DNA of 54,453 bases from Candidatus Ozemobacteraceae bacterium (GCA_937998695.1 CALLCO010000232.1:1-54453), one strand, 5' to 3'; positions 5,644 to 23,792 are shown, counted from the first letter of the stretch. Program-made: numbers and translations. Notes: generated by a model not told the origin, from the letters alone.

Positions 5644-6798
5644 TCAGGGCATCTTACACCCGCATTCCGGGCAGAATTTCGCCCCCGCCGCCATCGGCTT
5701 CTGACAGCCGGGGCAGGCGGCGCTCTGCGGCGAGCCGCACTCGGGGCAGAACTTCGCCCCAGCGGCCATCGGCGCCCGACATTTCACGCAGGCCGCCTTG
5801 CCCACGGTGTTGGGCTTGCCGCAATTCGGGCAGAACTTGGCCGCCGGATCCATCGAGGAGCGGCAACCGAGGCACGTCACGGGCACCCCGCCGGCCGGCG
5901 CCCCACCCATCGGCTGGAAGGCCTGCGCCATGCCCTGGCCCATGCCCAGGCCGGCGCCCAGACCGACCCCCATACCCGCCACGCTCCCGGGGTTCTGGGC
6001 GGCGGCGTTGATGGCTTTCAGTTGCTCGACCCGGGTGTAGGTGTTCATGCTGCTGCCGTCGATGTCGCCGAGCGCCTTGACCGCCTGGGCCTCGGCCATC
6101 TGGTCGGCGATCTTGTTGATGCGCCGCTTGGTGTCGTCGTCGAAGTCGGTGTTCTCGATGCGGAAATCGGTCAGCTCGAACCCAAGCGGCGGGAAGATGT
6201 CGGCCACCCGCTTGCGCAGCTCTTCCGACAGCTCGACCCGCTTGCGGTCGATCTCGGAATAGCTGTATCCCGACTCGGCGAACAGGTCGGTGAGCGGGGT
6301 CAGCACGCGGTCAACGATGATGGTGCGGATCTCGGCCACCGAAAAGACCTGCCGGGTGCTGGTCACTTCCGTGAAGAACTTGCGCGGGTCGACGATCTTG
6401 AACGAGAAGTTGCCGAAGGCGCGCAGGCCGACCGGGAACTTGTACTTGGGATCGTCGTATTTGATCGGAGCCTTGGTTCCCCATTTCTGGTTGAGGAACT
6501 CGGTCAAGCGCACGAAATAGATGTTCGCCTTGTGCTCGGAGGTGAAGCCCTGCATGATCTTGGTGATCGTCGTCCAGAAGGGGATGTTGGCGGTGCGCAG
6601 CTCGAACAGGCCCGGATAGTCGTGGATGGCCTGCACCTGCCCCTGATAGACGAAAATGGCCGCCTGCCCCGGGTTGACCAGCAGCTTGGAGGCGTTCTTC
6701 AGCTCGTCGCTGCCGCCATCCCAGCGCCAGATCAGGAGGTCGGGGGACGGATCCTTCCACTCGATGACGGACCGGAGTTGATCACGGAAAAAACCCAT
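5644..6798 (-). CDS. SPFH/band-7 domain protein with double zinc ribbons (YdjI-like)
   Basis: Begins MGFFRDQLRSVIEW with GGAGG SD; KWGTKAPI, GLRAFGNFSF, GMGVGLGAGLGMG; C-terminal repeated CxxC...AKFCPxCG. Confidence 0.88.
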   Translation of the reverse strand: MGFFRDQLRSVIEWKDPSPDLLIWRWDGGSDELKNASKLLVNPGQAAIFVYQGQVQAIHDYPGLFELRTANIPFWTTITKIMQGFTSEHKANIYFVRLTEFLNQKWGTKAPIKYDDPKYKFPVGLRAFGNFSFKIVDPRKFFTEVTSTRQVFSVAEIRTIIVDRVLTPLTDLFAESGYSYSEIDRKRVELSEELRKRVADIFPPLGFELTDFRIENTDFDDDTKRRINKIADQMAEAQAVKALGDIDGSSMNTYTRVEQLKAINAAAQNPGSVAGMGVGLGAGLGMGQGMAQAFQPMGGAPAGGVPVTCLGCRSSMDPAAKFCPNCGKPNTVGKAACVKCRAPMAAGAKFCPECGSPQSAACPGCQKPMAAGAKFCPECGCKMP

Positions 6799-7322
6799 GG
6801 GGCGCTCCTCCCTTGATGTGTAGTGCCGTCGGAACACGGCCCCCCGGCAAACCGGGAATGCTTCGAGTATACGGGAATACCCCTGGCAAGGCAACGCCGG
6901 CCCTGCGCGTTGCCCTGCGCGTTGCCGCCCACCCCGCCCCACAGATTCCAGCGTTCGTTCCGCCCCATCCTTCACCGCCCAAAAGGGTGTTGGGACTTGG
7001 ATCGGCCCCCTTCGGGAGCCTGGGGCACGCGATTTCCAGCACCGATCACGGGTTCGTTGAGCCTCTCTCGCGGGAAGATAGGCGGGAGTCACCCTTGACC
7101 ACCCTCTAACCAGGTCGTTCCGCTCCCCCCCTCCCCCCGCAACCGAACAACCTCCCCCGCCATTCCGCTTTCAGAGGAACAAGAACCGTGCGAGATGCCT
7201 GGCGAGGAAACGTGTCTCTTGTGCGACACGCGGGAAATGACGCATAATGACCCCGGTGGGCCTCCAACCAACCACTGGCGACCGACCGGGCCCGCCCACC
7301 ACTTCCGCCCTGGAGGGAACCG

Positions 7323-9105: not shown

Positions 9106-9231
9106 GGCCCCCCCTTGGTTGTTCGTCAGTATAGGGAAGCAAGCCGCATACCAGCCATGCGAGGCCAAAAAGGGGGCTGCACACGCCCGTTTCTCTGACC
9201 CCGGGCGGAAAAAGTGCTAGAATGTTGGCGC

Positions 9232-10518
9232 ATGACTGCTGATTCCTTCCCTCCCACCCCCGCCCCCTCCAGGGGGAAGAAGGCACCGCCGGCGCCCCCC
9301 CTGGCGCTGACCGGCCGGCCCGTTGTGCTCCTGCGGATGCAGAACTACAACAAAGTCAGCTTCGGCGCCCTGCTGGGAGCCGTGCCACCTGACCTGCTGG
9401 CCCGGGTCGAGATCCTGATCTGGGAAAAATATGGCCCGCCGCCGCCGATTCCCGCCGATCACCCCACCCTCCGCCTGTATTCCTTCATGATGCCGCATGC
9501 CGATCAGGTCTCGGCCGAACTGACCCGCCTCCGGGCTCATCTGCCTCCCGGGCACCGCCATTTCTTCGTGGTCGGAGGCGCCCAGGCCACCACCAACCCC
9601 GAAACCATGGACGGCCTCGCCTTCGATCTCGTGGTATCGGGCGAGGGGGAAGCGTTCTTCCCGAGCCTGCTCACCGACTGGCTCGCCGACTCGCCTCCCC
9701 GGGGGCGCATCCAGACGGGCCCGGAATGGGTCGACCTCGACCGGTACCCGGGCTTCCACCCGGCCATCGGCTACCTTCCCCCGATCGAGATCAGCCGGGG
9801 CTGCCGGTTCGGATGCAATTTCTGCGCCGTACCCCGGCTCTACCGCGGCACCTTGCGGCACCGCAGCATCCCACGCATCGTCGAGATCGCGGAGCGGTAC
9901 CGTGAGATTTTTCCCGCTCGACGACGTGTCAAATTTCTGTCATCGAACGCGTTCGCCTACGGTTCGGACGGCCGCATGCCGGAACCGGCCGCCCTGCATG
10001 ACCTGCTCGAGGCCATCCGCAAGGCCGGTTTTCCCCAGATCAACCTGGGGTCCTTCCCCTCAGAAGTCAGACCGGATTTCGTGACCCGCGAGGTCCTGGA
10101 GGTCGTCCGCCCCTACCTGACCAACCGCGAGATCGTCATCGGGTTGCAGTCCGGGCACGACGAACGGCTGGCCGCCATGCACCGGGGTCACACCCGGGAA
10201 CAGGCCATCCGAGCCCTGGAACTGCTGCGCGAGTATCATTTCACCCCCCACGTCGATTTCATCGTGGGTACTCCTGGCGAGACGGCCGCCCAGCAGCGCG
10301 AGATGGTGACGTTCATGGAGGAGCTGGTCAACCGGTTTGGCATCAGGATCCACATGCACACGTTCATGTCCCTCCCCGGTGCCAACTGGCAGGATCAACC
10401 CACCCGGGCGGTCATCCCCGAGGTGCACGAGAGCCTGCGCCGCCTGGCACGGGCGGGTGTCCTCGACGGCTGGTGGGAGAACCAGATCGGCTACGCTCGC
10501 AAGAAAGCGGGACTTTGA
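9232..10518 (+). CDS. B12-binding-domain radical SAM protein (resembles TIGR04013/MJ1487 family)
   Basis: IEISRGCRFGCNFC (CxxxCxxC), VVGGAQAT, SGEGE, GSFPSEVRPDFV, HMHTFMSLPG. Confidence 0.85.
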   Translation: MTADSFPPTPAPSRGKKAPPAPPLALTGRPVVLLRMQNYNKVSFGALLGAVPPDLLARVEILIWEKYGPPPPIPADHPTLRLYSFMMPHADQVSAELTRLRAHLPPGHRHFFVVGGAQATTNPETMDGLAFDLVVSGEGEAFFPSLLTDWLADSPPRGRIQTGPEWVDLDRYPGFHPAIGYLPPIEISRGCRFGCNFCAVPRLYRGTLRHRSIPRIVEIAERYREIFPARRRVKFLSSNAFAYGSDGRMPEPAALHDLLEAIRKAGFPQINLGSFPSEVRPDFVTREVLEVVRPYLTNREIVIGLQSGHDERLAAMHRGHTREQAIRALELLREYHFTPHVDFIVGTPGETAAQQREMVTFMEELVNRFGIRIHMHTFMSLPGANWQDQPTRAVIPEVHESLRRLARAGVLDGWWENQIGYARKKAGL

Positions 10519-11008: not shown

Positions 11009-11079
<71 letters not shown>

Positions 11080-11087
11080 CTCTCAAT

Positions 11088-11161
11088 GGCCCCATGGTGT
11101 AACCGGCTAACACGCAGCCCTCTCAAGGCTGAGAGCGCGGGTTCGAGTCCCGCTGGGGCTA
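11088..11161 (+). tRNA. tRNA-Glu (anticodon CTC)
   Basis: Acceptor GGCCCCA/TGGGGCT; anticodon arm CAGCC-CTCTCAA-GGCTG; T arm GCGGGTTCGAGTCCCGC; CCA not encoded. Confidence 0.95.
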
Positions 11162-11196
11162 CCGGGGGGTGGTTGCAAGCCATCCCGCACCGTGTC

Positions 11197-11658: not shown

Positions 11659-12816
11659 TCAGACCGGTTGACCGAACTTGCCGGCCAGGGCCCGGTAGGC
11701 CTCCTGGACCCGCTGGTATTCACGTTGAGCGAACTCCCGAAAGCTGTCGGGCAGAGTCGGATAGAGATCGGGGTGATATTCCCGGCTCTTCTTCTGCCAG
11801 GCTTCGGCGATGGCCTCCCAGGAAGCGCCCGGGGCCAGCCCCAAAACCTTGTACCAGGGGAAATCCTCGGGCTGGAAATCGGCCGCCATCTTCTCGAACT
11901 CGGCATCGCCGATACCGAACCGCCGCCGGATGCCATCGATCAGGGTCAACTCGCTCGCCTTGAGCTCGCCATCGGAAGAAGCGATGCTCAACAGCAGGGC
12001 GATGATGACCTGCTTCTCCTGAGCCGGCCGGTCAGCCAGCTTGGCCAGCACCGGCTCGAGATCGGGAGGCTCGGCCAGGAACCGCTTCAGGATCTGCCGT
12101 GCCTGGCCCATCTTGGCGGGTTGCCCCTGGAAGAGCCGGGCATGGAACTCGCGCACCACCTGGATCTCCTCGGGCTTGATCACCCCGTCGACCCGGATGA
12201 CCGCCGAAGTCAGCGCCACCACCCCTTCCTCGAAGAGATCGAGCTCGTCGGGGGAGGCGGGCGGGCGTGGCGCCAGCAGGGCCCAGCGGTCGGCGAACAG
12301 CTCGGGCAAATCGAGAGGCCCGCCGGTGGACAACACGAACTCGGGCTGGTCATCGAGGAGGGTGAACAGGCACAGCCAGGGGTCCCGGCCGTCGGGGCCG
12401 CCGCTGAGGACCCCGTAGGGGATGAACACCCGCTCTTCCAGGTCGGTGATGGTGGCAATGGTGGTCATGTATTCCTTCCGCATCAGGAACCGGCCCTGCG
12501 GATCGGCATAGATGGGGATCGAAGAGACCAGCGCTTCGCCAGTCGTGCGATCGACGACGGTCAGGAGGTGATCGCCACGGCAGTGCCGAAACCCGTGCAG
12601 ACGGGCCTTCCAGGTCACGCTCATGCCGAAGATACCGAAACGGTAGCCTTTTGGTTCGATCGGCAGGATCTGCAGCGACCCCTGCCGGGTCTTGGGCTGG
12701 AAGTCGAACGCCTTCCCCAACTGCGCCAGCGGGGCCGTGCGCCCCGCCCCCGGCGAGGCTTCGCGCCCGAGGATGAACCCGAGAATCTCCGCGGCGAACG
12801 GGCCGCTGCCCTTCAT
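11659..12816 (-). CDS. TerB-like plus C-terminal J-domain co-chaperone (DjlA-like) with unknown N-terminal domain
   Basis: VIRVDGVIKPEE and IASSDGELKASE (TerB-like); WYKVLGL...EYHPD...VQEAY (J-domain with HPD); ATGA overlap with upstream stop. Confidence 0.85.
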   Translation of the reverse strand: MKGSGPFAAEILGFILGREASPGAGRTAPLAQLGKAFDFQPKTRQGSLQILPIEPKGYRFGIFGMSVTWKARLHGFRHCRGDHLLTVVDRTTGEALVSSIPIYADPQGRFLMRKEYMTTIATITDLEERVFIPYGVLSGGPDGRDPWLCLFTLLDDQPEFVLSTGGPLDLPELFADRWALLAPRPPASPDELDLFEEGVVALTSAVIRVDGVIKPEEIQVVREFHARLFQGQPAKMGQARQILKRFLAEPPDLEPVLAKLADRPAQEKQVIIALLLSIASSDGELKASELTLIDGIRRRFGIGDAEFEKMAADFQPEDFPWYKVLGLAPGASWEAIAEAWQKKSREYHPDLYPTLPDSFREFAQREYQRVQEAYRALAGKFGQPV

Positions 12817-14264
12817 TCCTTGCCTCCGAACATTATCCACATCTGCAGCATCTTGATGGTATGGGGGTCGACCTTCCCCGCCATCCCGCCCCCCTCGTCG
12901 CAAAAGGACATGAACCGATCGAGCTTGGCCTTGCGGAAATAGGCCAGCACCACCACCGGATCGTTCAGCGGGAAGTATTTCCCGGTACCGGTGGTGTGGC
13001 AGGGCAGACATTCCTTGACCATGACGGGAAGAATATCCTGGTAGAAGCTCAGGTTCGTCATGCGCTGCTTCTTCGTCATCGTCCAGTAAGGACGCACCCG
13101 GCCGCTTCCCTCGCCTCCGGCGGCTGGGGATCCTCCGGCGACTGGGCTTCCTCCAACCGCCGGTCCAGGGGGCGTCCCCGCCGGTGGCCGCCCTGGATCA
13201 GTTTTAGGGGGGGGGAAGACCACGACGTCACGCAAGGGGGATCCTCCAGCGGGAGGGGGCGATCCCGTTCCGGTCATCACCAGAGAACCGGCTCCGGGCT
13301 CGCCCGGCAGGCGCAGGATGCCCAGGCCGCCGGTGCCAACCCAGAACGTCCCGTCACTGCGGCCCAGGGCGGTCACCGGCACCGGCCCCGCAACCTCGGG
13401 CAGGGGCACCTCCTCGACCGCTCCCCCGGCGCGGGCCAGGAACAACCCCCGCGCGGTGCCGCACAGCACGTTGCCCCCCGCCGTGGGCCACACGGCATGG
13501 AAGCGGGCGGTGGGAAAGCGGTCCCGTCCCCAGGCCTGCCGCCGCCCATCGGGAGCCACGGCCACTAGTCCAAACTCCCCGGCGGCATAAATGGTGCCGT
13601 TGTCAAGGGCGACGGCATCGACCGCCGGTTCGGGATAGACCCCCAGGTTGACGGGAGTGACGGCATTGGCGGCCGTGATCCGAAATGCCCCCATCGCCGT
13701 CGCGGCGACCACTTGTGCACCATCGGCGGCCAGACCGCGGATGGCCAGAGGCACGGGACCGGGCAGGGGAATGGTTTCACACAGCAACCCAGTGTAAACA
13801 CACAAGCCTTCGCGAGTCCCGATGAACAGGCGGTTGCCCAGGGCGGCCAGGGCCTCGACGAAGCTGTCCGGCAACCCCAGATCGCTCTGGGAAAACGTGC
13901 GCCAGCGGTCGCCCTCCAGGCGGGCCAGGCCGTGTCCATGGGTGCCGACCCACACCTGTCCGCCGGCCACCGTCACGGCACGCGCCGAGGCATCGGGGAA
14001 GCCGCGGTCCCCCCGGCGCCAGCTCTCGAGGCGGTCAGGCCGGACCAGGGTCACCCCGTTGGGGGTAGCGACCACCAGGGTATCCCCCTGGTCCGCCACG
14101 GCCTGGATGTGATTGTCGACCAGCCCGCTGTTGCCCCGGAAGAACCGCATAGCGGTCGGCTGCCCCTGCAGCCGCTGGCCAACCCCCAGTGCCAGAACCA
14201 GGACGACGGTCACCAGAACGGTCACCCCCCCCACCACCCATCGCATCGGACGGAATCGGTTCAT
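12813..14264 (-). CDS. Exported beta-propeller (Reg_prop-like) protein with C-terminal c-type cytochrome domain
   Basis: N-terminal TM/signal; blades VWVGTHGHGL, LFIGTREGL, FWVGTGGLGI; Pro/Gly linker; LSFYQDILPVMVKECLPCH (CxxCH at 12996-13010) and downstream GGGM. Confidence 0.82.
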   Translation of the reverse strand: MNRFRPMRWVVGGVTVLVTVVLVLALGVGQRLQGQPTAMRFFRGNSGLVDNHIQAVADQGDTLVVATPNGVTLVRPDRLESWRRGDRGFPDASARAVTVAGGQVWVGTHGHGLARLEGDRWRTFSQSDLGLPDSFVEALAALGNRLFIGTREGLCVYTGLLCETIPLPGPVPLAIRGLAADGAQVVAATAMGAFRITAANAVTPVNLGVYPEPAVDAVALDNGTIYAAGEFGLVAVAPDGRRQAWGRDRFPTARFHAVWPTAGGNVLCGTARGLFLARAGGAVEEVPLPEVAGPVPVTALGRSDGTFWVGTGGLGILRLPGEPGAGSLVMTGTGSPPPAGGSPLRDVVVFPPPKTDPGRPPAGTPPGPAVGGSPVAGGSPAAGGEGSGRVRPYWTMTKKQRMTNLSFYQDILPVMVKECLPCHTTGTGKYFPLNDPVVVLAYFRKAKLDRFMSFCDEGGGMAGKVDPHTIKMLQMWIMFGGKE

Positions 14265-14274
14265 GGTTCCCCCC

Positions 14275-15285
14275 TCACAGCCGCTTCAGAATGGCCAACC
14301 CCTTCTCGGTACCGACATACAGCCGGGACACGCCATCCGCCCCACGGCCGACCGCCAGGCACCGGATTTGGTGCGCGGGCAGGCCATCGCGGTGATCGAT
14401 GGGAGGCTCGATCCGGCCGGCCCGCAACACTTGTAGCCCTTTGGCGGTGCCGATCCATAGATCAGTTCCATCGACGGCCAGCGCGGTGATCCAGCCGTCG
14501 GCCAGGCCGCTCTCTTTTCCCAGCAGTCGCCAGGCCCCGTTCTCGAAGACCTGCAGGCCCAGGGTCGAACCGGCATAGACCCGGTCGGGCAGGGTCGCCA
14601 GGGCGGTGATGCGGTCGGCCGGTAACCCGGAAGACAAGGTGTAGTTGGTCACCAGGGGGCGATCGCCCTCCTGGCCACGATAGACGCTGATGCCGGCCAT
14701 GGTGCCGATCCACAGTTCGCCGGGCCGGCTGGCCAGGCACATGATCTGGTTGCTAACGATGCCCTTCTTGGTGGCCAGATACCCGAACTTGCGGAACGGG
14801 TTGGTCTCGTGGACGTAGTAGTTGAGCCCCTGGTCGTCGGTGCCGATCCACAGGACGTTCTTGTCATCGACATGGAAACAGGAGACGTAGTTCGACTGCA
14901 TGTCGTCCTTGATCTCCTCGAACCATTCCCATTGCAAGCCGTCCCAGCGGTAGGTGCCGCCGCCGGCAACCGGCGAACGGCAGGTGGTCCACAGTTCGTT
15001 GCCCCGTACCGCCATGGCCGGAATCGACAGGAACTTGAGTTTCGAATTCTGCGGGGTCCAGTGGGTGATAGTACCGTCCTTCTTCAACACGTTCAGGTAT
15101 TTCCTGGTGCCGATGTACACATGATCGGGGCCCACCGCCAGCGACAGGACCACCGGGTGGCTCAACCCCTCCTTGGGGGTCAGGACCCGCTCCAACTGGA
15201 TGCCCGCCGGCATCACCGCGCCGGCCGGGGAAATGGCCGCCACCAGGCACCCCAGGATGATCACCCACAATCCGGTCCGTCTCAT
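14275..15285 (-). CDS. Secreted beta-propeller (Reg_prop-like) protein
   Basis: Signal peptide; about 7 blades of the type GL.....I..LA.....LWIGT..GL. Confidence 0.88.
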   Translation of the reverse strand: MRRTGLWVIILGCLVAAISPAGAVMPAGIQLERVLTPKEGLSHPVVLSLAVGPDHVYIGTRKYLNVLKKDGTITHWTPQNSKLKFLSIPAMAVRGNELWTTCRSPVAGGGTYRWDGLQWEWFEEIKDDMQSNYVSCFHVDDKNVLWIGTDDQGLNYYVHETNPFRKFGYLATKKGIVSNQIMCLASRPGELWIGTMAGISVYRGQEGDRPLVTNYTLSSGLPADRITALATLPDRVYAGSTLGLQVFENGAWRLLGKESGLADGWITALAVDGTDLWIGTAKGLQVLRAGRIEPPIDHRDGLPAHQIRCLAVGRGADGVSRLYVGTEKGLAILKRL

Positions 15286-15329
15286 CTGTCTTACCCTCCC
15301 GCAAAGGCTGTGATAGGGCCAGAATAGCG

Positions 15330-15362
15330 AAAAACCCGGGGAGACGCAAGGTCTCCCCGGGT
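15330..15362 (-). terminator. Intrinsic terminator after the large secreted protein gene
   Basis: Perfect 12-bp stem ACCCGGGGAGAC/GTCTCCCCGGGT, 5-nt loop, T-run on minus strand, 16 nt past the stop. Confidence 0.85.
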
Positions 15363-15378
15363 CGAGAGCGGCTGGGAA

Positions 15379-18159
15379 CTACTGCCGGCGCTGGTGGTCT
15401 TCGATGGTGCGGTTGTCGGACTTGAGGTCGAGCACCTTCACCCGGAAGAACAGGCGCTGTTCGTTGGGCTGGGTGTCGAAGGGCACGTCGCGGACGGTGT
15501 ATTCCACGCGATAGAGGCCGGGGTTGCGGAAGATGTGGTAGAACTTCAGATCGGGCTTGAACTGGCTCAGGCGACCGTTGTAGGGCTGGTCGAAGACCGA
15601 GCGTTCGATTTTTTCGTCCTTGTTGCCGTTCTCATCTTCCAGCAGTTCGAACTTCCCGGTGGGATTGCCGTTGGCATCGAGTTCCTGGATCTGCATCTTG
15701 TAGTAGCTGATGCCGCGGTGCTTGTGGAAGTTGTCGATGTTGTCCCAGGCGTGGGCCGCGATGTTGATGCGGGTGTCTTCGTAGATCACCTTGTCGCCGG
15801 TGAGCAGCGAGGACCCGATCGGGGGCTGGAGGCCTTCGCCCGACTTGTTGATACTGATCTCCTTGGTGGTGAGGTCGTGGTCGCCCAGGTAGGAACCCTG
15901 GCCATACTCGCTGGCAATGCCGGTCTTGAGATCTTTCACGACCAGTTTGTCGCCATAGTCGAGCTGGTCATCGGCCGGCACGCCAACCACATGATCGTTG
16001 CCATTGGCATCGGTCAACGTGCACTCGCAGTTGGGAGTGGAGCCTTCGCCGCTGTCGCTGACCTTCAGGAAGCCGACCTGGTTGGTGGTATTGCCGCAGC
16101 AGTCGGCCATATCGACCTTGAACATCAGGTCGGGAACCTTCTGCATCCACTCGTGGCCGTATTTGTTGATGAAGTTGGAGTTGGTGCCGGCCACCTGGAG
16201 CTCGAGGGGAACTCCGGCATCGGCGGCAGTGCCGACTCGATGCCATTTGCCATCGTTGCCCAGGACGAAGTTCTGGCTGTCGGTAGCCATTTGCTCGCCG
16301 GAGTGGCGCCCACCCGCAGTAGAATCCCACTCGATGGAATTGACCGCGAAGTGCTTGGGCAGCAGAACGCGAGGGCCGGGAATCATCCAGGAGGCTTGCT
16401 TGACCTCCTGGCCGTCGACGGTGACGTTCTTCTCCTCGTAAATGCCGGCGATCTTCTCGAATTCGATGGGACCGACACAGTAGCGGCCGCCGTCCTTGAA
16501 CTCGATGTAAGAGAAGCGGTTGTAATCGGTCTTGCCGTTGGCGGCGAGGTGGGCCTTGAAAGCCGCGAGGTCGGCGGCGGCTTTCTTCCCGCGTTCGCCC
16601 ATTTCTTTGTAGTCGTTGATCATGGCATCGATCTCGGGACCGACATCGATCGGGCGGCCATCTTTGTCTTTCTTCCCGGTGACGTGGCTGTTGAGGGTCT
16701 TGATCTTCAGCAGGCCGCTGTTGCGCTCGTCGAGGATGAAGTAGCACAGGCCGCGGGCCCAGGGGGCCAGGCTCTTGGCGCTGTAGGCATTGGCATACCG
16801 GTTGGTGATGTAGTCCTCAACCTCTTCGGAGCTGCGGCGGCTCCACATCGGATCGATGTTCTTGTAGTAATCGTATTCCTCGGCCTTCTTGGCGGGGCCG
16901 ACGTAGGGCCCGTAGACCACGGTGTCGTCGAAGACCGGGGGATTGTCGGAGATCTTAATTCGCTCCCAGGAAGAGCCGTTCCAATTCATTTTGTAGGTCG
17001 GAGCCAGGTAGACGAAGTAAATGTAGGGCTCGGAGGTCGGGTCATCCGGATCATAGCCGGGATTATCGAGCTTGTACAGATCCATGTTGCCGCACTCGTA
17101 GTTCATGCTGGCCTTGAGGCGGTCGGAACTGACAACGGCATTGGGGTTGTCGTCCTCAATCTCGAACAGAATGCCCTTGACCTTCTTCCAGGAGTTAGAG
17201 CTCTTCTCGTAGACGGAGTCGACGAACCCGCCGGCATTGCCGCGGTAGATCTTGACTTCGGTGGACTTGACGGTGGGGGCGGAATAATCTTCGACGTACA
17301 CACGGTTGACCGCGGTGAACCCCCCCAGATCGCTCTTCAGACCGAACTTGTCGGGGGTGTCGTTGATGATCTTCTTGCTCTCCCAGGCGGTGGGTTCGCT
17401 GTTGAGCTGGGCGGGGCTGATCGTGTTAGTATCGATGACGCTGTCGTCGGCATTGCCAAAATAGCCGTCGCCGGAGACCCCGGAGGGGGTAACCTGGGCG
17501 CGCTCGTAGGTCAGGGTCATGCCGACTTCTTGCAGCACGGTGGAGCCTTTGGTGTCATCGGTCCCGGAGATACCGGAGTCGAAGGGTTTCTTGTGCACGT
17601 TGGGATAGATCTTGGGGTCCCAGGTCTTGTCGCCGGTGCCGTTAACGATATTGCGCATGTAGGTGACCGCCTTCTCGGCACCGGAGGCTTTGTAGAAGGG
17701 GGTCCAGACCTCGCCGCCGGAAGCGCCGTTGACCCCGCCGCTATTTTCACCCTCGCCAGCATCCTCAAAGACCCAGTTGTATTTGACGTTCCTGTAGACG
17801 AACCATTTTCCCGCGTCGGTGCCGGAGACGACCTTCACCAGGAAGGGGTATTTGGACGCGGTGGAGCCGGTGTTGCGGTAGATCCGCACGTTGTCCTTGA
17901 TGCGGTTGTCGAAACCGCGGACGACCGGCTCGGGCTCGACCATGGGAATCCACATGCCGATCTGGGATTCCGCCTTGTCGATCATGTCGGGGATTCGCCG
18001 GATTTCGTTCTTGGGAATGGACATGATCCCCACGGGGTGTTTGGACGGATCGTTCGTGTCATAACGGGTGTCGGTGGCCACTCCGCTCACGTCCGCCGCA
18101 AAGGCCGCGGGGGCCAACACACACAGGACCGCCAGGGCCAACCAAATCCTTTTCACCAT
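15379..18159 (-). CDS. Large (926 aa) secreted hypothetical protein, probably beta-sandwich rich
   Basis: SD GGAGGG; signal peptide MVKRIWLALAVLCVLAPAAFA; D/N/K/Y-rich composition; strong codon bias; Ig-like hallmarks (DYSAPT, ADCCGN, HIFRNPGLYRVEYTVRD). Confidence 0.85.
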   Translation of the reverse strand: MVKRIWLALAVLCVLAPAAFAADVSGVATDTRYDTNDPSKHPVGIMSIPKNEIRRIPDMIDKAESQIGMWIPMVEPEPVVRGFDNRIKDNVRIYRNTGSTASKYPFLVKVVSGTDAGKWFVYRNVKYNWVFEDAGEGENSGGVNGASGGEVWTPFYKASGAEKAVTYMRNIVNGTGDKTWDPKIYPNVHKKPFDSGISGTDDTKGSTVLQEVGMTLTYERAQVTPSGVSGDGYFGNADDSVIDTNTISPAQLNSEPTAWESKKIINDTPDKFGLKSDLGGFTAVNRVYVEDYSAPTVKSTEVKIYRGNAGGFVDSVYEKSSNSWKKVKGILFEIEDDNPNAVVSSDRLKASMNYECGNMDLYKLDNPGYDPDDPTSEPYIYFVYLAPTYKMNWNGSSWERIKISDNPPVFDDTVVYGPYVGPAKKAEEYDYYKNIDPMWSRRSSEEVEDYITNRYANAYSAKSLAPWARGLCYFILDERNSGLLKIKTLNSHVTGKKDKDGRPIDVGPEIDAMINDYKEMGERGKKAAADLAAFKAHLAANGKTDYNRFSYIEFKDGGRYCVGPIEFEKIAGIYEEKNVTVDGQEVKQASWMIPGPRVLLPKHFAVNSIEWDSTAGGRHSGEQMATDSQNFVLGNDGKWHRVGTAADAGVPLELQVAGTNSNFINKYGHEWMQKVPDLMFKVDMADCCGNTTNQVGFLKVSDSGEGSTPNCECTLTDANGNDHVVGVPADDQLDYGDKLVVKDLKTGIASEYGQGSYLGDHDLTTKEISINKSGEGLQPPIGSSLLTGDKVIYEDTRINIAAHAWDNIDNFHKHRGISYYKMQIQELDANGNPTGKFELLEDENGNKDEKIERSVFDQPYNGRLSQFKPDLKFYHIFRNPGLYRVEYTVRDVPFDTQPNEQRLFFRVKVLDLKSDNRTIEDHQRRQ

Positions 18160-18293
18160 ATTCCCTCCAGTTGTTTGTTGGAGCCGGGTACGCCGGTCTC
18201 CGCGCATGCCCTCTTGTTCATCCTCGTCTACGCGTCTTTCTGGGTTGCCGTTCACCTCCGATTGTTTTTTTCACATTCAATCCCCCTAGGGGA

Positions 18294-19787
18294 TCAGCGC
18301 ACCGATTTATTGATCTTGTCGGTCAACTGCCGTTCGATCCCGAATTTTTCCTCGAGGGTTTCGAGGGCCTCGTTGATCTTGGCGGCATGGACATATTTCG
18401 GATTCACCGTCACGATTTCCTTGTAGAGTCGGTAGGCCCGCTTGAGGTTTTTGTAGGGGAGGTACTCCAACTGATGGCTGGGGTCTTCATTCGAGAAATT
18501 GTTGCCCGGAAAGGAGTTCCCGGTGGCGTAGTAGATGTTCGCCAGCTGATATTTCACGTCGAGCATTTCCGGGCCATACTGGGCGGCCAGTTCGTACTCG
18601 GCGATGGCCTCGTCGATCCGACGACGCATCTCCATGTATACCCCTTGGTAGAACCGGCACCAGGGGTTGTCAGGTTCGAGGGCGATGGCCGCGGTCAGGT
18701 GTTTCTTGGCCGAGAAGTCCATGATGCGGGGGAGGTAGATGGCGACCAGCCCGAGGTGATACCGGGCCTTGGTGGGATCGAGGGCGATGGCCACTTCGTG
18801 GAAGTGGATCGACTCGTCGAGGCGGTTGACGTTCTTCAAGCCGGTGGCGTATTTGAAGGCCGCTTCGGCCATCTCGCGATGCATCTCGAAAGCCCGGGCG
18901 TAGAAATCGAGGGCTTTGTGGAATTCCTTCAACCCGGTATAAGCATCGCCGGCTCCCCACAGCGGTCGCAGATCTTCGCTGTCGATCTTCAGAGCCTTCT
19001 CGAACCACTCGATGGCCTTTTTGTAGTCACCCCGCACCAGGCTGAGGTCGCCGCTGTACAAGGTCGCCAGGAAGTCCTTGGGATCGAGCTTGACCGCCCG
19101 GCCCAGCGCATCCTCGGCCACCTTGAAGTCGAATTTCTTGGCGAAGGTGCAGGCCCGGCCCAGCATCGTCCACTGGGCTTTGTTCATGGCCCCGTCGCCG
19201 ACCGCTTTGCGAACGCCCTCGAGCAGGGTTTTGGCCTGGTCGAAGTAGGTCTCGCCGTATTCCGCCATGGTCCGGCCAGCGATGTCCATGAGTTCGACAT
19301 TGCCGGGTTCGAGGGCCAGGGCCTTCTCGAACTCGAGAATGGCGTAGATGGCCTGCTTCTCCTCGAGATAGGCGGCGCCACGACGGTAGTGCTCCTGGGC
19401 CTTGTCATTCTTCAGACTGGCCAGGCGATATTTGTCCATCGTCGCCGCCGAAGGCTCGGCGATCCCCGCCGGAGCTCCCAGACCGACTTTCTCACGGTGC
19501 TTGGCCGCCCGTTTGAAAGCCTCTTCCGCGGACTTGGTACGGCCGGCGGCCTGCAGGGAGGTGCCGAAGGCTTCCCAGACCATGGCGGCCTTGGAGGGAT
19601 CGCCCCGCAGCAGGTTCTGGTGCTTGACCAGGATATCATTGAAGGCCTTGGCCGCCGGGTCGAACTGCCCGGCCTCGTGCTGGGCCCGGGCCTTCGCCAT
19701 GTCCTGCTCGAGGGTGTCGGCCACGCCGGCCAACGGCAACCCGAGCACCAGAATCAAGGCCAATAACATTCCAGGGAACCGAATCAT
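18294..19787 (-). CDS. Secreted tetratricopeptide-repeat protein
   Basis: Signal peptide; many TPR ends (FEKALALEPGN, RAVKLDPKD, FEKALKIDSED, AIALDPTK, AIALEPDN); ATGA overlap with upstream gene. Confidence 0.9.
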   Translation of the reverse strand: MIRFPGMLLALILVLGLPLAGVADTLEQDMAKARAQHEAGQFDPAAKAFNDILVKHQNLLRGDPSKAAMVWEAFGTSLQAAGRTKSAEEAFKRAAKHREKVGLGAPAGIAEPSAATMDKYRLASLKNDKAQEHYRRGAAYLEEKQAIYAILEFEKALALEPGNVELMDIAGRTMAEYGETYFDQAKTLLEGVRKAVGDGAMNKAQWTMLGRACTFAKKFDFKVAEDALGRAVKLDPKDFLATLYSGDLSLVRGDYKKAIEWFEKALKIDSEDLRPLWGAGDAYTGLKEFHKALDFYARAFEMHREMAEAAFKYATGLKNVNRLDESIHFHEVAIALDPTKARYHLGLVAIYLPRIMDFSAKKHLTAAIALEPDNPWCRFYQGVYMEMRRRIDEAIAEYELAAQYGPEMLDVKYQLANIYYATGNSFPGNNFSNEDPSHQLEYLPYKNLKRAYRLYKEIVTVNPKYVHAAKINEALETLEEKFGIERQLTDKINKSVR

Positions 19788-20839
19788 CGAGGGTCTCCTC
19801 CTGTGTGGATGGTGGAATAATCGAACAGGCATAGCCAATTCTTATCACCCACGAGGTACACTTGTCCAATGTCTGTACCCACCACGACGCCCGCGCGGGT
19901 GACTCCCAGACTCTTGATGGCCCGGGAGGCTGAGGCCGGGCCATCCTGCCTCTCGACCGTCCCATCCGCCAGAAGCCGGAACAACCCCTCTTCGGTACCC
20001 ACCCACAGGTGGCCCCCGAACGGAAGCAATGCATGGACCTGATCGGGAATCCCGGGAATCCGGCGGAAGGTTGCCCGCCGTGGGGCCGGCCGCCGAGGTT
20101 TCGCCGAGTCTGCGGGATGGACGGGTTCGAGCCGTTCCACCAATCCTCCCGAGCCGGTCCCCAGGAACAGGTTCCCCTGGAAACGGGCCAGAACGTTGAT
20201 ATTGCCATCACGCCACTGGCGATCGGGGAGTTCGACCCGGGTGATGCGGGTGCCTTCGAGGAAGGCCAGACCGGCGTAGGTGGCAAGCCAGGTGCCGGAG
20301 GCATCCGCCAGGGCGTCGTTGATCCAGTCGCTGGGCAGGCCATCCGATTCACCGAGGGTGACCCAGCGGCCGTCCGTGGCCAGACACAGGCCGTCCCCCA
20401 CCGAACCCAACAAATACCCCCCGCCAGGCAGCCCCAGAAACGCGTGGAAGTGCCGCGAGGGCGGATCGCCGAATGAGGTCAGCCGACTCCAGCGCCCGCT
20501 GGAGCGGTGCAGACGAGCCGCTCCGCCTCCGGCGGTCGCGACCAGCAGGTCTTCGCCTTCCAGCAGGAGTTTGCTGATGCGGTCGTCAGGTAACCCCCCC
20601 GGGGCTTGGCGCACCTGCGACCAGGTATCCCCCGTGCGTATCCAGAGGCCGGCCCCGAAGGTACCGAGGTAGAGGCGCCCGGCGTCATCTTCGACAAGGG
20701 CGCGACAGACACAGGTGTAAGCGGTTTTTTTCCATACCGACCCTTCTCTTGTCAAAGACCCGAGGCCCAGGGCCACCGAACCGGCGGCCGTCAGCACGAT
20801 CAGGAGCATCAGGAACGAGAGTCGGGACAGAGGTCGCAC
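19784..20839 (-). CDS. Secreted beta-propeller (Reg_prop-like) protein
   Basis: GTG start with AAAGGA RBS; signal peptide; LYLGTFGAGL, GLPDDRI, GLPSDWI, LFLGTGSGGL, LWVGTEEGL. Confidence 0.85.
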   Translation of the reverse strand: MRPLSRLSFLMLLIVLTAAGSVALGLGSLTREGSVWKKTAYTCVCRALVEDDAGRLYLGTFGAGLWIRTGDTWSQVRQAPGGLPDDRISKLLLEGEDLLVATAGGGAARLHRSSGRWSRLTSFGDPPSRHFHAFLGLPGGGYLLGSVGDGLCLATDGRWVTLGESDGLPSDWINDALADASGTWLATYAGLAFLEGTRITRVELPDRQWRDGNINVLARFQGNLFLGTGSGGLVERLEPVHPADSAKPRRPAPRRATFRRIPGIPDQVHALLPFGGHLWVGTEEGLFRLLADGTVERQDGPASASRAIKSLGVTRAGVVVGTDIGQVYLVGDKNWLCLFDYSTIHTGGDPR

Positions 20840-20880
20840 GAGGTCCTTTCGGCCTCCCTCCGGGGAGGCAGGAGCAGGGA

Positions 20881-21828
20881 TCAGGTCGGATCGGTCCCGC
20901 CGGCCAGGGCGGCCGCCGGGGTCTTGCGCTTGCGCTGGACGAGGAGCTTGCCGCGCCGGAAGCAGTCGGCGAGGGCGTGGGGGACCCGCATCTCGGCTTC
21001 GACGAGGCGGGCCTTCATTTCCTGTTCGATTGCCTTGTTCTCCTGCATCTGGGCGACGGCCAGGGCGCGGCGGCCCTCGGCCTTGGCCTGGGCCACCTTG
21101 CGATCGGCCTCGGCTTGATCGTTCTGCAGGATGGCGCCGATGTTGCGCCCGACGTCGAGATCGGCCACCTCGAAGGAAATGATCTGGAAGGCCGTTCCGG
21201 CATCGAGCCCGGCCTTCATGATGTTCTGGGTGATCAACTCAGGGCGCTTGAGCACGTCGGTATGGGTATCGGCCGATCCGATGGCCGAGACGATGCCTTC
21301 GGAGACCCGAGCCAGGATGGTCTCTTCGCCGGCTCCGCCGACCATCGTCTCAAGGTTGGCCTTGACCGTGATCTTGGTCTTGGCGATGACCTCGATCCCG
21401 TTGCGCGCCATGCCGGCGACCGCCCCGGTAGAGAGAACGCGGGGTTGGACACTCATGCGCACTGCATCCTGGACATCGCGCCCAGCCAGATCGATGGCGG
21501 CCGCCTTCTCGAAGGTCAGATCAAGGTTGGCCCGCCCGGCACTGATGAGCGCGTTGACGACCCCCTCCACGTCCCCGCCCGAAAGATAGTGGGCCTCGAG
21601 CCGGTCGAGGAACAAGGGCAACCCCGCCTTGTTGCCTCGGATGAAGGTATCGATGATGACATCGGTCGGCACCTTTCGCAGGTTCATGGCGATCAGTTCG
21701 ACCGGACCGACCGGAACCCCTGCCGAAAGGCATTTTATGAAAGTCCGGAAGGGGAAGAGGGAGAGGATGACAAAAAACCCGAGGACTCCGAGAACGAGGA
21801 GAATGCCGACAACAACGGTGCCAGTCAT
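20881..21828 (-). CDS. floA: Flotillin-like protein FloA (YqfA/UPF0365)
   Basis: LEAHYLSGG, AAAIDLAGRDV, VGGAGEETILARV, GLDAGTAFQIISFEVADLDVGRNIGA, AKAEGRRA. Confidence 0.93.
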   Translation of the reverse strand: MTGTVVVGILLVLGVLGFFVILSLFPFRTFIKCLSAGVPVGPVELIAMNLRKVPTDVIIDTFIRGNKAGLPLFLDRLEAHYLSGGDVEGVVNALISAGRANLDLTFEKAAAIDLAGRDVQDAVRMSVQPRVLSTGAVAGMARNGIEVIAKTKITVKANLETMVGGAGEETILARVSEGIVSAIGSADTHTDVLKRPELITQNIMKAGLDAGTAFQIISFEVADLDVGRNIGAILQNDQAEADRKVAQAKAEGRRALAVAQMQENKAIEQEMKARLVEAEMRVPHALADCFRRGKLLVQRKRKTPAAALAGGTDPT

Positions 21829-21861
21829 GGATGATCACCCCGGAATAGTGGATTCTCCCCC

Positions 21862-21890
21862 ACTTTAAACTTCTCACGAAGGGCTGTCAA
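21862..21890 (-). promoter_or_regulatory. Sigma70-type promoter upstream of floA
   Basis: TTGACA-17 nt-TAAAGT on the minus strand. Confidence 0.65.
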
Positions 21891-22096
21891 ATCCAAACCA
21901 GGGAAGGCGCGGGCTTCCATACGTACATAGACTATGGAGAGACCGGCCAGGATGTTTCAAAAAATATGGAAAGTGACGCCAGGGTCACGGCGAGGGCATT
22001 TCGCGGGAAAAAACCTCACGTGCTGAAACTGCACGTCGCTAGGGATTTTTTCCCTACCGGCTGGTCCCCATCTGAAATGGCGTGTCTGATGGTAGC

Positions 22097-22681
22097 TCAG
22101 TCCGACATCCGGGATTCGAGCTCACGCAGACGGGCAGCCGAAATCCGATCTTCAGGGTTGTGGTTGATCGTCTTCTGCAACCGATCGATCTCGTTGCGGC
22201 AGTAGCGGATGAGCCGTTTGAGCACATCGAGGTCACGGAGCAGGCTCTGATCGTAGTTGGGAAGCTGGGTGGCCCGGGCCCAATCGTTGAAGGCCTTCCG
22301 ATACTGGCTGCGCTCGAACTGGATCTGCCCGGACAGCTTGAAGGCGCCGAAATTATGGGGGTCATACCACTTTGCCCGCTCCAGGCGGCGCAGGGCTTCG
22401 TCGTAGCTCCCGCTGAAGTAGTCGCGGGTGGCATGATTCAGGTATTGGCTCGCCCGGGCCTCATTCAGATGCTTGTCGCGGTTGGGGAAGTCATCATCGA
22501 GGTCAGGGGTGGGCGTCGCCAGCCCCGCCTCCCCTCCTGTACTGGTGACTTGGGGCTTGAGACCGATCTTCAGCGAACCGAAGTCGACGTAGGCGAACCG
22601 TTGGACGAAGATGCCGCCGATGGCCAGAATGGCCACCACCGCCACCGCCAAGACTATTTTCGCCCCCGTCGACAATATCAT
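22097..22681 (-). CDS. Membrane-anchored TPR-like protein
   Basis: N-terminal TM; YDEALRRLERAKWYDPHN and YRKAFNDWARATQLP; ATGA overlap with upstream gene. Confidence 0.78.
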   Translation of the reverse strand: MILSTGAKIVLAVAVVAILAIGGIFVQRFAYVDFGSLKIGLKPQVTSTGGEAGLATPTPDLDDDFPNRDKHLNEARASQYLNHATRDYFSGSYDEALRRLERAKWYDPHNFGAFKLSGQIQFERSQYRKAFNDWARATQLPNYDQSLLRDLDVLKRLIRYCRNEIDRLQKTINHNPEDRISAARLRELESRMSD

Positions 22682-23523
22682 CTAGGGCACCAGGCCTCCT
22701 CGGAATGGATTCCCCGTTCCTGGAGGTAGGTTAAATAATCCGACCGGCCCGAACGACCCCGACCGGGTCGCCTGGTCGACAGCTCTTGAGCTGAAATTCC
22801 CAGCAGGGCGGCCTCCCGTTTCACGTCGGGGTTGCCCTGGCGAAAGGCGGAACGGACGAACCGGTCGAGGGCGGGCTCAAGGGGCCAGCAGCCAAGCCGG
22901 AACAGCCGCTCGGCGTTCGCCTGGGCAGCCAAGGGCGACAGACGAACCGCCCATAGGGAGCGGGCCCGCCACAGGTCGAGCTGCCCTCGCAGAGCCGCCG
23001 GACAGCGGCCGTCATGGATCGCTCTCCAGGCATGGATCCAGGAGAGGGTGCCCACAGGGTCGGCAGCAGGCGCGGGCAACAGCCCACGGTTCAGGAGGTG
23101 CTGCAATTCTCCTGGGGATAGGTGCACGAGTTGTGAGGCCGATGCGGCCTTTTGGCGAAGGGCTGGTTCTTCGACGGCAACAGCGAGTTCAGCGATCTCG
23201 GAGACGCTCACTTTATCTCTGAGAGCGCGATAGCGTGCGGTCAAGCTGGCCAGGTGGTCGGCATCCTGCTGATCGCGGATCTCCTGTCTGGATCGCAGGT
23301 CGGCGAGGCTTCCCAGGAGTTGGGCATCCGTGACCAGGGAATGATCCGGCCAGGTCTGGGTGAAGCGGTCAAAATGCTCGCGGGCTTCCCGCCAGTGGCC
23401 CAGGGTGAACGCCCGCCGGCCGTCCTGGTAGACTTCTTCGGGAGTAATGGCGATGATCGTGGTTGCCCCAGACAGGGCCACCAGCACGACCACTACCGGA
23501 AAAATGGCGCAAATCCGCTTCAC
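22678..23523 (-). CDS. Exported helical/TPR-like hypothetical protein
   Basis: Signal-like N-terminus; YQDGRRAFTLGHWREAREHFDRFTQTWPDH resembles a BamD/CpoB-type TPR. Start GTG 23523 or 23535. Confidence 0.65.
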   Translation of the reverse strand: MKRICAIFPVVVVLVALSGATTIIAITPEEVYQDGRRAFTLGHWREAREHFDRFTQTWPDHSLVTDAQLLGSLADLRSRQEIRDQQDADHLASLTARYRALRDKVSVSEIAELAVAVEEPALRQKAASASQLVHLSPGELQHLLNRGLLPAPAADPVGTLSWIHAWRAIHDGRCPAALRGQLDLWRARSLWAVRLSPLAAQANAERLFRLGCWPLEPALDRFVRSAFRQGNPDVKREAALLGISAQELSTRRPGRGRSGRSDYLTYLQERGIHSEEAWCPR

Positions 23524-23792
23524 TGGCCCCCCCACGCGTTCCAGCCTTCAAGTTCGCAAAAACTCTGCCAAAATCGGGATGGCGGGCCACCCGATCGTGT
23601 ACCCTTGGATTCATCGGCAGTTCGGGCCCAACACCGAATGGGACGCGGAAGGTTGGTCGGCACGCCGATGTGCGTTAAAGACACGTCGCGTCGATCAGGG
23701 GTGGGCTACCCAGCGATCACCGGGCATTATGTGCAAAAGCCCGCGTTTTCGGTTTGCGTTCCGGCTGAATGGCCCCTGGAGGCAGAAGGGGG

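Follow-up and report, generated by a model that had tools for sequence, protein, structure and literature searches.

The window analysed here is a stretch of 54,453 nucleotides (GCA_937998695.1, CALLCO010000232.1:1-54453), to the whole of which all coordinates refer, from a member of the family Ozemobacteraceae in Candidatus Riflebacteria (Rifleibacteriota). Between positions 11,659 and 21,890 lie seven genes, lettered A to G in their order of reading, which a first-pass annotation made from the sequence alone had proposed as a single undescribed envelope system. A encodes FloA, B and E stand-alone beta-propellers, C a tetratricopeptide repeat (TPR) protein, D a 926-residue protein, F a third propeller with a short tail, and G a J-domain protein. 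Inspection of the minus-strand open reading frames (ORFs) together with domain scans confirmed that the seven are co-oriented and lie where that annotation had placed them. Direct reading of the sequence likewise bore out its two ATGA couplings, in which the start of C falls on the stop of B (19784-19787) and the start of G on the stop of F (12813-12816); the remaining intergenic gaps are 41 nt (A-B), 134 nt (C-D), 93 nt (D-E) and 10 nt (E-F). Its claim of five exported products also held, B, C, D, E and F each carrying a single N-terminal hydrophobic segment according to a Kyte-Doolittle heuristic by which G has none, and as it reported, Pfam and NCBIfam scans of the seven products found no kinase, transporter or secretion ATPase domains. 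The proposal that the seven genes form one conserved system was not sustained. Comparison of gene order among relatives, the check which that annotation had itself named, shows that FloA, F and G scatter, in line with its refuting condition for those parts, and that only B-C-D-E is invariant, so that what survives of the proposed envelope system is a smaller, conserved multi-gene unit around the 926-residue protein.

The closest named genome is that of Candidatus Ozemobacter sibiricus BY5; its D and that of the window share 93% identity. When the window's own genome and 40 relatives were searched, D was present in 18 of the 24 other genomes of the family and in 0 of the 16 genomes from other families of the phylum. 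A D profile run against 1.84 billion representative proteins gave 38 matches at E ≤ 1e-3, including 19 at E ≤ 1e-30, the weakest of which cover only the PKD-like stretch at the C-terminus. The D-profile scan, with one genome per species, yielded 44 loci, and gene order at these was compared by using the window's seven proteins as tblastn queries. All 44 are compatible with the order B-C-D-E: 31 are complete, one has a split D, one reads B-C-E-D, and 11 are cut by a contig end lying within 750 nt of the last detected gene. At none of the 44 is a core gene absent where the contig has room for it. Wherever the contig allows, B stands directly upstream of C and E follows D, the B-C-E-D locus being the sole exception to the latter. 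Outside this core, FloA was found at 10 of the 44 loci, F at 10 and G at three. Judged by homology, the cassette appears to occur only in Ozemobacteraceae among the genomes searched.

The cassette is present in two or three copies per genome. Placed in a quick maximum-likelihood tree, 42 full-length D proteins fell into three deep, starred clades of 11 (clade I), 10 (clade II) and 21 (clade III) rows. Clade I holds the window copy, and eight of its 11 rows are linked to FloA, the other three coming from contigs which start inside or just before the cassette. The second copy in the window's own genome, on contig C311, belongs to clade II, and clade III is the Rifleibacterium type. Between clades, identities are about 23–36% for B, C, D and E alike. 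The surroundings of the clade II and clade III copies consist of housekeeping genes that differ by clade, namely glutamate dehydrogenase, Macro-domain protein, NAPRTase, ABC-F protein, ClpB and ferredoxin-type genes for clade II, and, for clade III, SecA, PtsN and HPF on the opposite strand with a radical-SAM gene and a prepilin-like gene after the cassette. In these neighbourhoods no gene for a transporter, a secretion ATPase or a regulator follows the cassette from copy to copy. Each copy has kept its own B, C and E through an ancient duplication, a pattern that points to copy-specific protein contacts.

Several individual loci deserve comment. The only rearranged cassette (L064 / L030; genome G021, contig C55) reads FloA-B-C-E-D. 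Both L030 and L026 have an internal stop in the reading frame of C at the coordinates used. At L037 (genome G001, contig C27, 9655-12445) a clade I D occupies two adjacent frames, covering residues 1-348 and 348-926, owing either to a frameshift or to an assembly error. L066 (DYKG01000007.1), titled Candidatus Methylomirabilis sp., holds a clade III cassette; it corresponds to genome G015, which is placed in the window's family, and the public label looks wrong.

D is an orphan at the level of sequence, and it has no clear fold match. It matches no Pfam or NCBIfam family, and a sequence-profile search of the PDB returned only keratin rows, at E ≥ 0.049. An AlphaFold2 model built with 19 homologues (mean predicted local distance difference test score (pLDDT) 72.5; predicted template modelling score 0.62) consists of several beta-sandwich domains, a helical insert at about residues 425-540 and a PKD-like C-terminal domain. 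The N-terminal extension, residues 21-60, is conserved yet disordered in this monomer model. A Foldseek search of the PDB with the whole model found nothing at E ≤ 1e-3. The best result of an exhaustive alignment (VIA-align wide) was 2c4x_A (Z 9.2, root-mean-square deviation (rmsd) 2.5, 93 residues), which aligns with the C-terminal sandwich only. Across the whole-model fold searches, only generic Ig-like, PKD, carbohydrate-binding module and macroglobulin-domain matches were returned, and comparison with a protein atlas gave scores of at most 0.81, to Ig-like clusters. Residues 55-425 are the most conserved part of the protein and hold most of its invariant residues; when folded alone (pLDDT 71.2) this core reached a best Z of 4.1 and no Foldseek match at E ≤ 1e-3. 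Since the mean pLDDT of the models is only 71-73, these negative fold searches could miss a fold. A CCGN motif at residues 687-690 (window 16097-16108) is invariant in all 19 aligned D proteins, which span the three clades.

Among the weak fold matches were alpha-2-macroglobulin and complement C3. The top Foldseek row was 4ziq (E 2.7e-3, probability 0.08), and exhaustive alignment gave Z 8.0 for CD109 and 7.0–7.5 for C3, C5 and A2M. Only single sandwich domains align, however, there is no sequence relationship, and the helical insert of about 115 residues in D is not a thioester domain. Two further readings were rejected. A likeness to the beta-barrel assembly machinery (BamB, BamD, BamA) fails because the D model is made of sandwiches and helices without a C-terminal barrel and matches no family, and lipoprotein anchoring of D or E fails because the Cys of the signal-like segment is not conserved in the orthologue N-termini that were compared.

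The first-pass annotation did not mention a terminator-like hairpin which follows the D stop. It extends from 15363 to 15333, with a U-run to 15328, and is strong (dG -32.3 kcal/mol, z -4.1; 0 of 200 shuffles fold as well). A strong hairpin is found after D in nearly all of 18 loci representing the three D clades, its position being kept while its sequence differs, and under the stricter requirement of a run of at least four T it is retained at the window locus and at 11 of the 16 others tested. A scan for hairpins with a T-run found nothing comparable in the A-B or C-D gaps. The strong hairpin after D argues against simple equimolar transcription of all seven genes. With 21 genes for ribosomal proteins and elongation factors from the same genome as the reference set, 2646 ORFs were ranked by codon adaptation index (CAI). 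D has a CAI of 0.663, at the 84th percentile and the highest in the cluster; C, A, E, F and B follow at percentiles 61, 50, 49, 17 and 7. Taken together, the codon adaptation and the hairpin point to D as the main product, with downstream genes that may be expressed at a lower level by read-through.

The remaining core proteins contain familiar repeats. The whole-protein Reg_prop (PF07494) scores of B and of E (52.4 bits) lie above the gathering cut-off of 20.4. Scans with Pfam and NCBIfam found no kinase, receiver or cyclase output domain in B, E or F, each of which has one N-terminal hydrophobic segment. C matches TPR families only, and all 20 of its NCBIfam rows fall below their equivalog cut-offs; the top named rows are MamA (75.3 bits, cut-off 200) and PrsT (70.6 bits, cut-off 312), and the models for PilW, LapB and BatC are likewise out of reach. 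Riflebacteria figure in work on gene clusters for magnetosomes; a link to magnetosomes through MamA was rejected, the score being 75 bits against a required 200, the region holding no other mam-type domain, and the similarity being that of TPR proteins in general. In Ca. O. sibiricus the orthologues of D and F are named 'hypothetical protein' and that of C 'TPR repeat protein', and orthologues of B and E carry the public names 'GGDEF family protein' and 'Two-component response regulator', neither of which is supported by domain evidence.

TPR proteins typically bind disordered, conserved segments. This habit, and the conserved yet disordered N-terminal extension of D, led us to select C and D for co-folding, using residues 25-497 of C and residues 21-291 of D, each with its own alignment. 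The interface score (ipSAE) was 0.64, 0.56 and 0.53 (median 0.56), and 0.00 in all three controls; the pLDDT of the partners did not fall below 80, and at least 58% of contacts were common to the runs. When the method was calibrated, 58 of 80 solved complexes and 2 of 110 mismatched pairs reached the mark, and scores of 0.60 or below accounted for only 7 of the 80 solved complexes together with both of the mismatches that passed; because our own alignments were used, these counts hold roughly. Multimer prediction for the TPR protein and the large protein, which the first-pass annotation had recommended, thus returned a verdict of weak support, confined to residues 21-291 of D. The predicted interface modestly raises the odds of a contact between C and D and does not address affinity.

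Table 1. Genes and sequence signals of the locus (positions in the 54,453-nt window)
Feature	Position	Strand	Evidence
A, FloA, family-specific paralogue 'FloA-1'	20881-21828	-	PF12127 E 1e-117; NF010186 402.6 bits
B, exported stand-alone Reg_prop beta-propeller, core gene 1	19784-20839	-	Reg_prop 29.6 bits
C, exported TPR protein	18294-19787	-	many TPR families
D, 926-aa secreted orphan protein	15379-18159	-	without Pfam or NCBIfam family
E, exported stand-alone Reg_prop beta-propeller, core gene 4	14275-15285	-	Reg_prop E 1.9e-14
F, Reg_prop-like propeller with CLPCH tail	12813-14264	-	Reg_prop 19.4 bits
G, cytoplasmic TerB protein with C-terminal J domain	11659-12816	-	TerB E 3e-16; DnaJ E 6e-9
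Promoter-like TTGACA-17-TAAAGT 5' of floA	21862-21890	-	10/12 positions match
Terminator-like hairpin between up1 and floA	22018-22036	-	6-bp stem, then GAGGTTTTTT
Intrinsic-terminator-like hairpin directly 3' of D stop	15328-15363	-	13-bp GC-rich stem + UUUUU

We consider that the window carries the clade I copy of an undescribed four-gene envelope cassette in which D is the major product and B, C and E are its partners, and we put the probability of this at about 0.5. In the mechanism that we propose, B, C, D and E would leave the cytoplasm via the Sec pathway, as their signal-like segments imply. D would be the major and more highly expressed product, and the hairpin behind it would lower the expression of the genes that follow. 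The part of D bound by C may be its conserved N-terminal extension together with the first beta-sandwich, a contact with which the co-fold is weakly consistent. B and E, whose propeller blades are apparently of the type used by glycan-binding sensor domains and PorZ, would be partners of low abundance and would serve to position D, or to anchor it, in the periplasm or at the outer membrane of a diderm cell. Riflebacteria are treated as diderms with OmpM homologues or tethers in one preprint (bioRxiv 10.1101/2021.05.31.446380). An ancient duplication of the cassette would have left each copy with its own B, C and E, and FloA, F and G would be later, lineage-limited additions, FloA probably being co-transcribed with B-C-D in the window's genus. 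A more specific version of this scheme is only tentative, and we would sooner expect it to need revision: B-C-D-E may build an envelope structure of a kind not known before, seen so far only in Ozemobacteraceae. This could be a surface layer, a fibre or a scaffold in the periplasm, and D would be its major subunit, assembled by a dedicated TPR receptor and two propellers. The three paralogous sets might then build distinct or composite versions, and FloA-1, co-transcribed in part of the family, might organise clade I assembly at the inner membrane. It is mainly by default that the cassette falls outside the known kinds of system, being made of familiar repeat domains and one orphan protein.

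A number of observations weigh against the four-gene envelope cassette as just described. The locus counts are not independent, since they come from related genomes, some of which figure both among the 44 loci and in the 40-relative search. The hairpin after D is without a run of at least four T in 5 of the 16 other loci, and the CAI of D is only moderately high, in the lower half of the range of the ribosomal-protein reference. The co-fold score falls in a band where a predicted contact is more often wrong than right unless it was likely beforehand, and the propellers could bind small ligands or glycans unrelated to D. The cassette encodes no secretion or anchoring device. Sequencing runs matching the window DNA comprised three DNA runs from one marine-metagenome study, one of which contains 0.99 of the sampled words and may be where this DNA comes from, and no RNA runs. 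Lastly, the adjacency of FloA to D proteins of two clades could mean that its link to the cassette is more than positional.

Gene order may also be conserved where no complex is formed. B, C, D and E could be four independent periplasmic proteins held together by co-regulation or descent; all loci come from one family, so that their shared order is partly ancestry, none of the four proteins has a known function, and the sole interaction test gave weak support. We nevertheless regard this explanation as unlikely. The four genes have remained together through at least two ancient duplications, divergence to 23–36% identity and relocation, which is hard to attribute to inertia alone, and even the rearranged B-C-E-D locus keeps all four.

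A substrate-capture or degradative module, resembling polysaccharide-utilisation loci, would make D an extracytoplasmic binder or enzyme of new fold and the propellers glycan-binding proteins, like those of hybrid two-component sensors, with copies differing in specificity. Such a module would sit well with the Reg_prop blades in B, E and F, with the several divergent copies per genome, with the likeness of the C-terminal domain of D to PKD and carbohydrate-binding-module sandwiches (2c4x_A, Z 9.2; BT4663, Z 7.5), and with a GH57 gene found upstream in the clade I context. Those structural matches, however, are to generic Ig-like sandwiches in a common range, and the conserved N-terminal core of D has no enzyme-like fold match (best Z 4.1). 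Neither a transporter, nor a regulator, nor a recognisable hydrolase is encoded in the cassette copies or consistently beside them, and the GH57 product has no signal-like segment by our heuristic, its gene lying behind a terminator-like site. We judge this explanation, too, to be improbable.

The gene upstream of the core encodes a full-length FloA. Its product scores 393.1 bits against PF12127 (cut-off 34), with residues 9-297 on profile positions 3-291 of 314, and its score against NF010186 is above the cut-off of 393. The hydrophobic 19-mer which starts at residue 1 (mean hydropathy 2.38, heuristic) corresponds to the expected N-terminal membrane segment. Every Ozemobacteraceae genome searched has two FloA paralogues. 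Orthologues of A occur in 24 of 24 family genomes at 57–92% identity, including the 6 without a detected D, and the second paralogue (as at G000:C62:346-1215), which is about 52% identical, is common to other families of the phylum. At 9 FloA-orthologue loci that were fetched no cassette genes were detected. Genome G006 keeps the block up3, GH57, up2, up1 and FloA without B-E, and has a Na/Ca exchanger and unrelated exported proteins where the cassette would stand. For all of these reasons FloA is not a required part of the cassette.

A looser association is kept alive by two observations. One is the 41-nt gap between floA and B, which in the window has no hairpin with a T-run; the same is true of seven of nine other loci, or eight of the ten tested in all. 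In the absence of such a hairpin, A-B-C-D may well form one transcript in the window. The other is that the FloA-adjacent D of genus g8 (L064/L030, L068) belongs to clade II and not to clade I. The TTGACA-17-TAAAGT promoter of the first-pass annotation was recovered upstream of floA (21890-21862). In 4 of 4 aligned sequences from upstream of floA, taken from genomes with a FloA 77–92% identical, both of its hexamers stay unchanged, whereas the remaining spacer diverges; the match alone is weak because the region contains 5 such sites against 2.5 ± 1.8 in shuffled sequence. A hairpin (22036-22018) splits the upstream gene up1, and with it the up2-up1 pair, from this promoter-like site.

The pair up1 and up2 (window 22097-23535, minus strand) stands before floA in every preserved clade I context, and it does so too in G005 and G006, where the locus has no cassette. 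The up1 product has a membrane segment and a weak TPR-like region, that of up2 a signal-like segment, and both may be real partners of the FloA-1 paralogue. In Firmicutes, the operons of FloA (YqfA) place floA beside an NfeD gene. A resembles the protein of those operons in being a full-length FloA above the equivalog cut-off; it differs in being the family-specific second paralogue and in its companions, up1/up2 being weakly TPR-like and showing no NfeD family in domain scans.

F consists of the third propeller, a Pro/Gly-rich linker and a C-terminal domain of about 85 residues with a CxxCH motif. Its Reg_prop score is just under the 20.4-bit cut-off, and it pairs with E (5e-8) and B (7e-7) over the blade repeats. 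All 10 loci at which F occurs have a clade I D. Seven orthologues were aligned, and in the six that are readable (the seventh being masked or truncated there) the tail keeps both the motif, as C[LQM][PA]CH, and a GGM motif about 45 residues downstream of it. The 99-aa tail matches no Pfam family even at E ≤ 5, and a genome search for PSCyt1 at E ≤ 1 found only contig C196 and not F. PF01578 is above cut-off on two genome contigs, C313 and C271, which hold cytochrome c assembly genes. The tail may plausibly be a mono-haem domain. A thioredoxin-like CxxC domain was considered and rejected, the PDB rows for protein disulfide isomerase being non-significant (E 0.3–1.6). The cytochrome c gene of the first-pass annotation is thus not a separate gene: it is the C-terminal portion of F, and of the assignment there remains the conserved CxxCH only. 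In one genome (G004; L020 / L038, 189-2825) the F orthologue is 878 aa long and has a second propeller-like insert before the CxxCH tail.

Full-length G was found only in the window's genus g1, being present in 4 of 4 genomes there (the window's own included) and in 0 of 21 others. Both of its domains are above their cut-offs, with TerB at 60.2 bits (cut-off 24.4) and the J domain PF00226 at 36.3 bits (cut-off 27.8), and no family matches the N-terminal part of about 195 aa. G is built in the manner of Escherichia coli DjlA, a membrane-anchored protein with a TerB-like and a J domain, in that TerB is followed by a C-terminal J domain, and an orthologue is publicly named 'DnaJ-like protein DjlA'. 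It differs in scoring below the DjlA model (NF006948; 40.6 bits, cut-off 162), in having no hydrophobic N-terminus, and in the extra N-terminal part.

These results bear directly on the platform envisaged by the first-pass annotation, in which FloA microdomains would organise the export and display of D, the CxxCH of F would act in redox and the TerB-J protein would recruit DnaK. The conserved promoter-like site and the uninterrupted stretch between floA and B remain in its favour, as do FloA adjacency in several genera and two D clades, the ATGA coupling of F to G, and the conserved CxxCH in a genome with cytochrome c assembly genes. Yet 34 of the 44 loci have the cassette without FloA, at least three of them on short, maybe cut, contigs; FloA orthologues are found throughout the family, D-less genomes included; the 9 fetched FloA loci showed no cassette genes; and in G006 the FloA block runs into the exchanger and unrelated genes. 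G is genus-specific and F clade-specific, the strong hairpin parts D from E-F-G, and the tail of F matches no cytochrome family. A seven-gene flotillin platform accordingly seems doubtful to us, and distinctly unlikely. We give very little credence to a periplasmic sensing accessory, in which B and E would be co-sensors for a kinase or cyclase encoded elsewhere and D a ligand or scaffold: Reg_prop is best known from sensor domains, and the public names quoted above, with 'ligand-binding sensor domain-containing protein' among them, point the same way, but no GGDEF or receiver domain match lies behind those names, apart from the signal-like segment at the N-terminus neither B nor E contains a transmembrane part or an output domain, and no signalling gene is conserved beside any copy.

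The four-gene envelope cassette can be set beside systems of known type. Reg_prop propellers are mostly known as sensor domains. In the periplasmic sensor domain of Bacteroides hybrid two-component systems of the BT4663 type (PDB 4a2l), tandem Reg_prop propellers are followed by an Ig-like Y_Y_Y domain. The cassette resembles these in the blades of B, E and F and in the use of two propellers with Ig-like sandwiches, and 4a2l_A aligns with the C-terminal domain of D (Z 7.5, rmsd 3.1, 108 residues), a similarity in the generic range. Here, by contrast, the propellers are separate exported proteins of about 310 aa without membrane anchor, kinase, receiver or DNA-binding part, and the Ig-like domains are on a separate 926-aa protein. 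PorZ of type IX secretion has two beta-propellers and a C-terminal domain. E, a single propeller, matches NF052228 over one blade region (residues 130-205, E 1.9e-8), and a clade III B orthologue weakly matches PorZ_N_b_propeller. However, E reaches only 33.3 bits against a cut-off of 260, and NCBIfam places no type IX C-terminal domain family in D, a genome search for type IX or type II components not having been made.

In fimbrial and pilus operons such as pap, a stem-loop after the gene for the major subunit sets the stoichiometry of subunit to accessory proteins. The cassette has a similar layout, with accessory genes, the best-adapted large secreted gene, a strong hairpin and then more accessory genes. 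It lacks chaperone, usher, pilin and sortase families, and D is a protein of about 900 aa and not a small subunit. No named system of this composition was found in the accessible parts of the literature on the lineage or on FloA, beta-propeller and tetratricopeptide operons.

Other genes near the end of the cluster are recorded for completeness. Just past the end of G, the opposite strand carries a pair of tRNA genes, tRNA-Gln(CTG) and tRNA-Glu(CTC) (window 11009-11163, plus strand), adjoined by a B12-binding radical SAM gene (9214-10518, plus strand; TIGR04013 337 bits, cut-off 251). A second SPFH protein, of a different type from FloA, is encoded at 5644-7092 (minus strand) and has a Band_7_1 match (E 3e-44) and C-terminal double zinc ribbons; the window thus holds two unrelated SPFH-family genes about 14 kb apart. 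At 3300-5489 (plus strand) lies the gene for a 729-aa protein in which a Tim44-like domain (E 1e-25) and a zinc ribbon are combined with a TerB-like stretch at the C-terminus, making it the second protein with TerB in the vicinity of G.

The more striking seven-gene platform of flotillin, haem and chaperone is not the part of this locus that is conserved. Riflebacteria are uncultured, and in a published survey (PMC10849945) they rank first among phyla, one unnamed phylum excepted, in the density of novel gene families per genome. In a lineage so rich in orphan genes, a conserved orphan operon is in itself no great surprise. Public annotation can be corrected in one respect, since the names given to B and E orthologues are not backed by any GGDEF or response-regulator domain. 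The cassette offers a compact and testable case, in which four genes have been kept together through ancient duplications around an orphan secreted product of about 900 aa. If D is an abundant component of the envelope, it would define a novel class of envelope structure, and stand-alone Reg_prop propellers would be seen in a role new to them.

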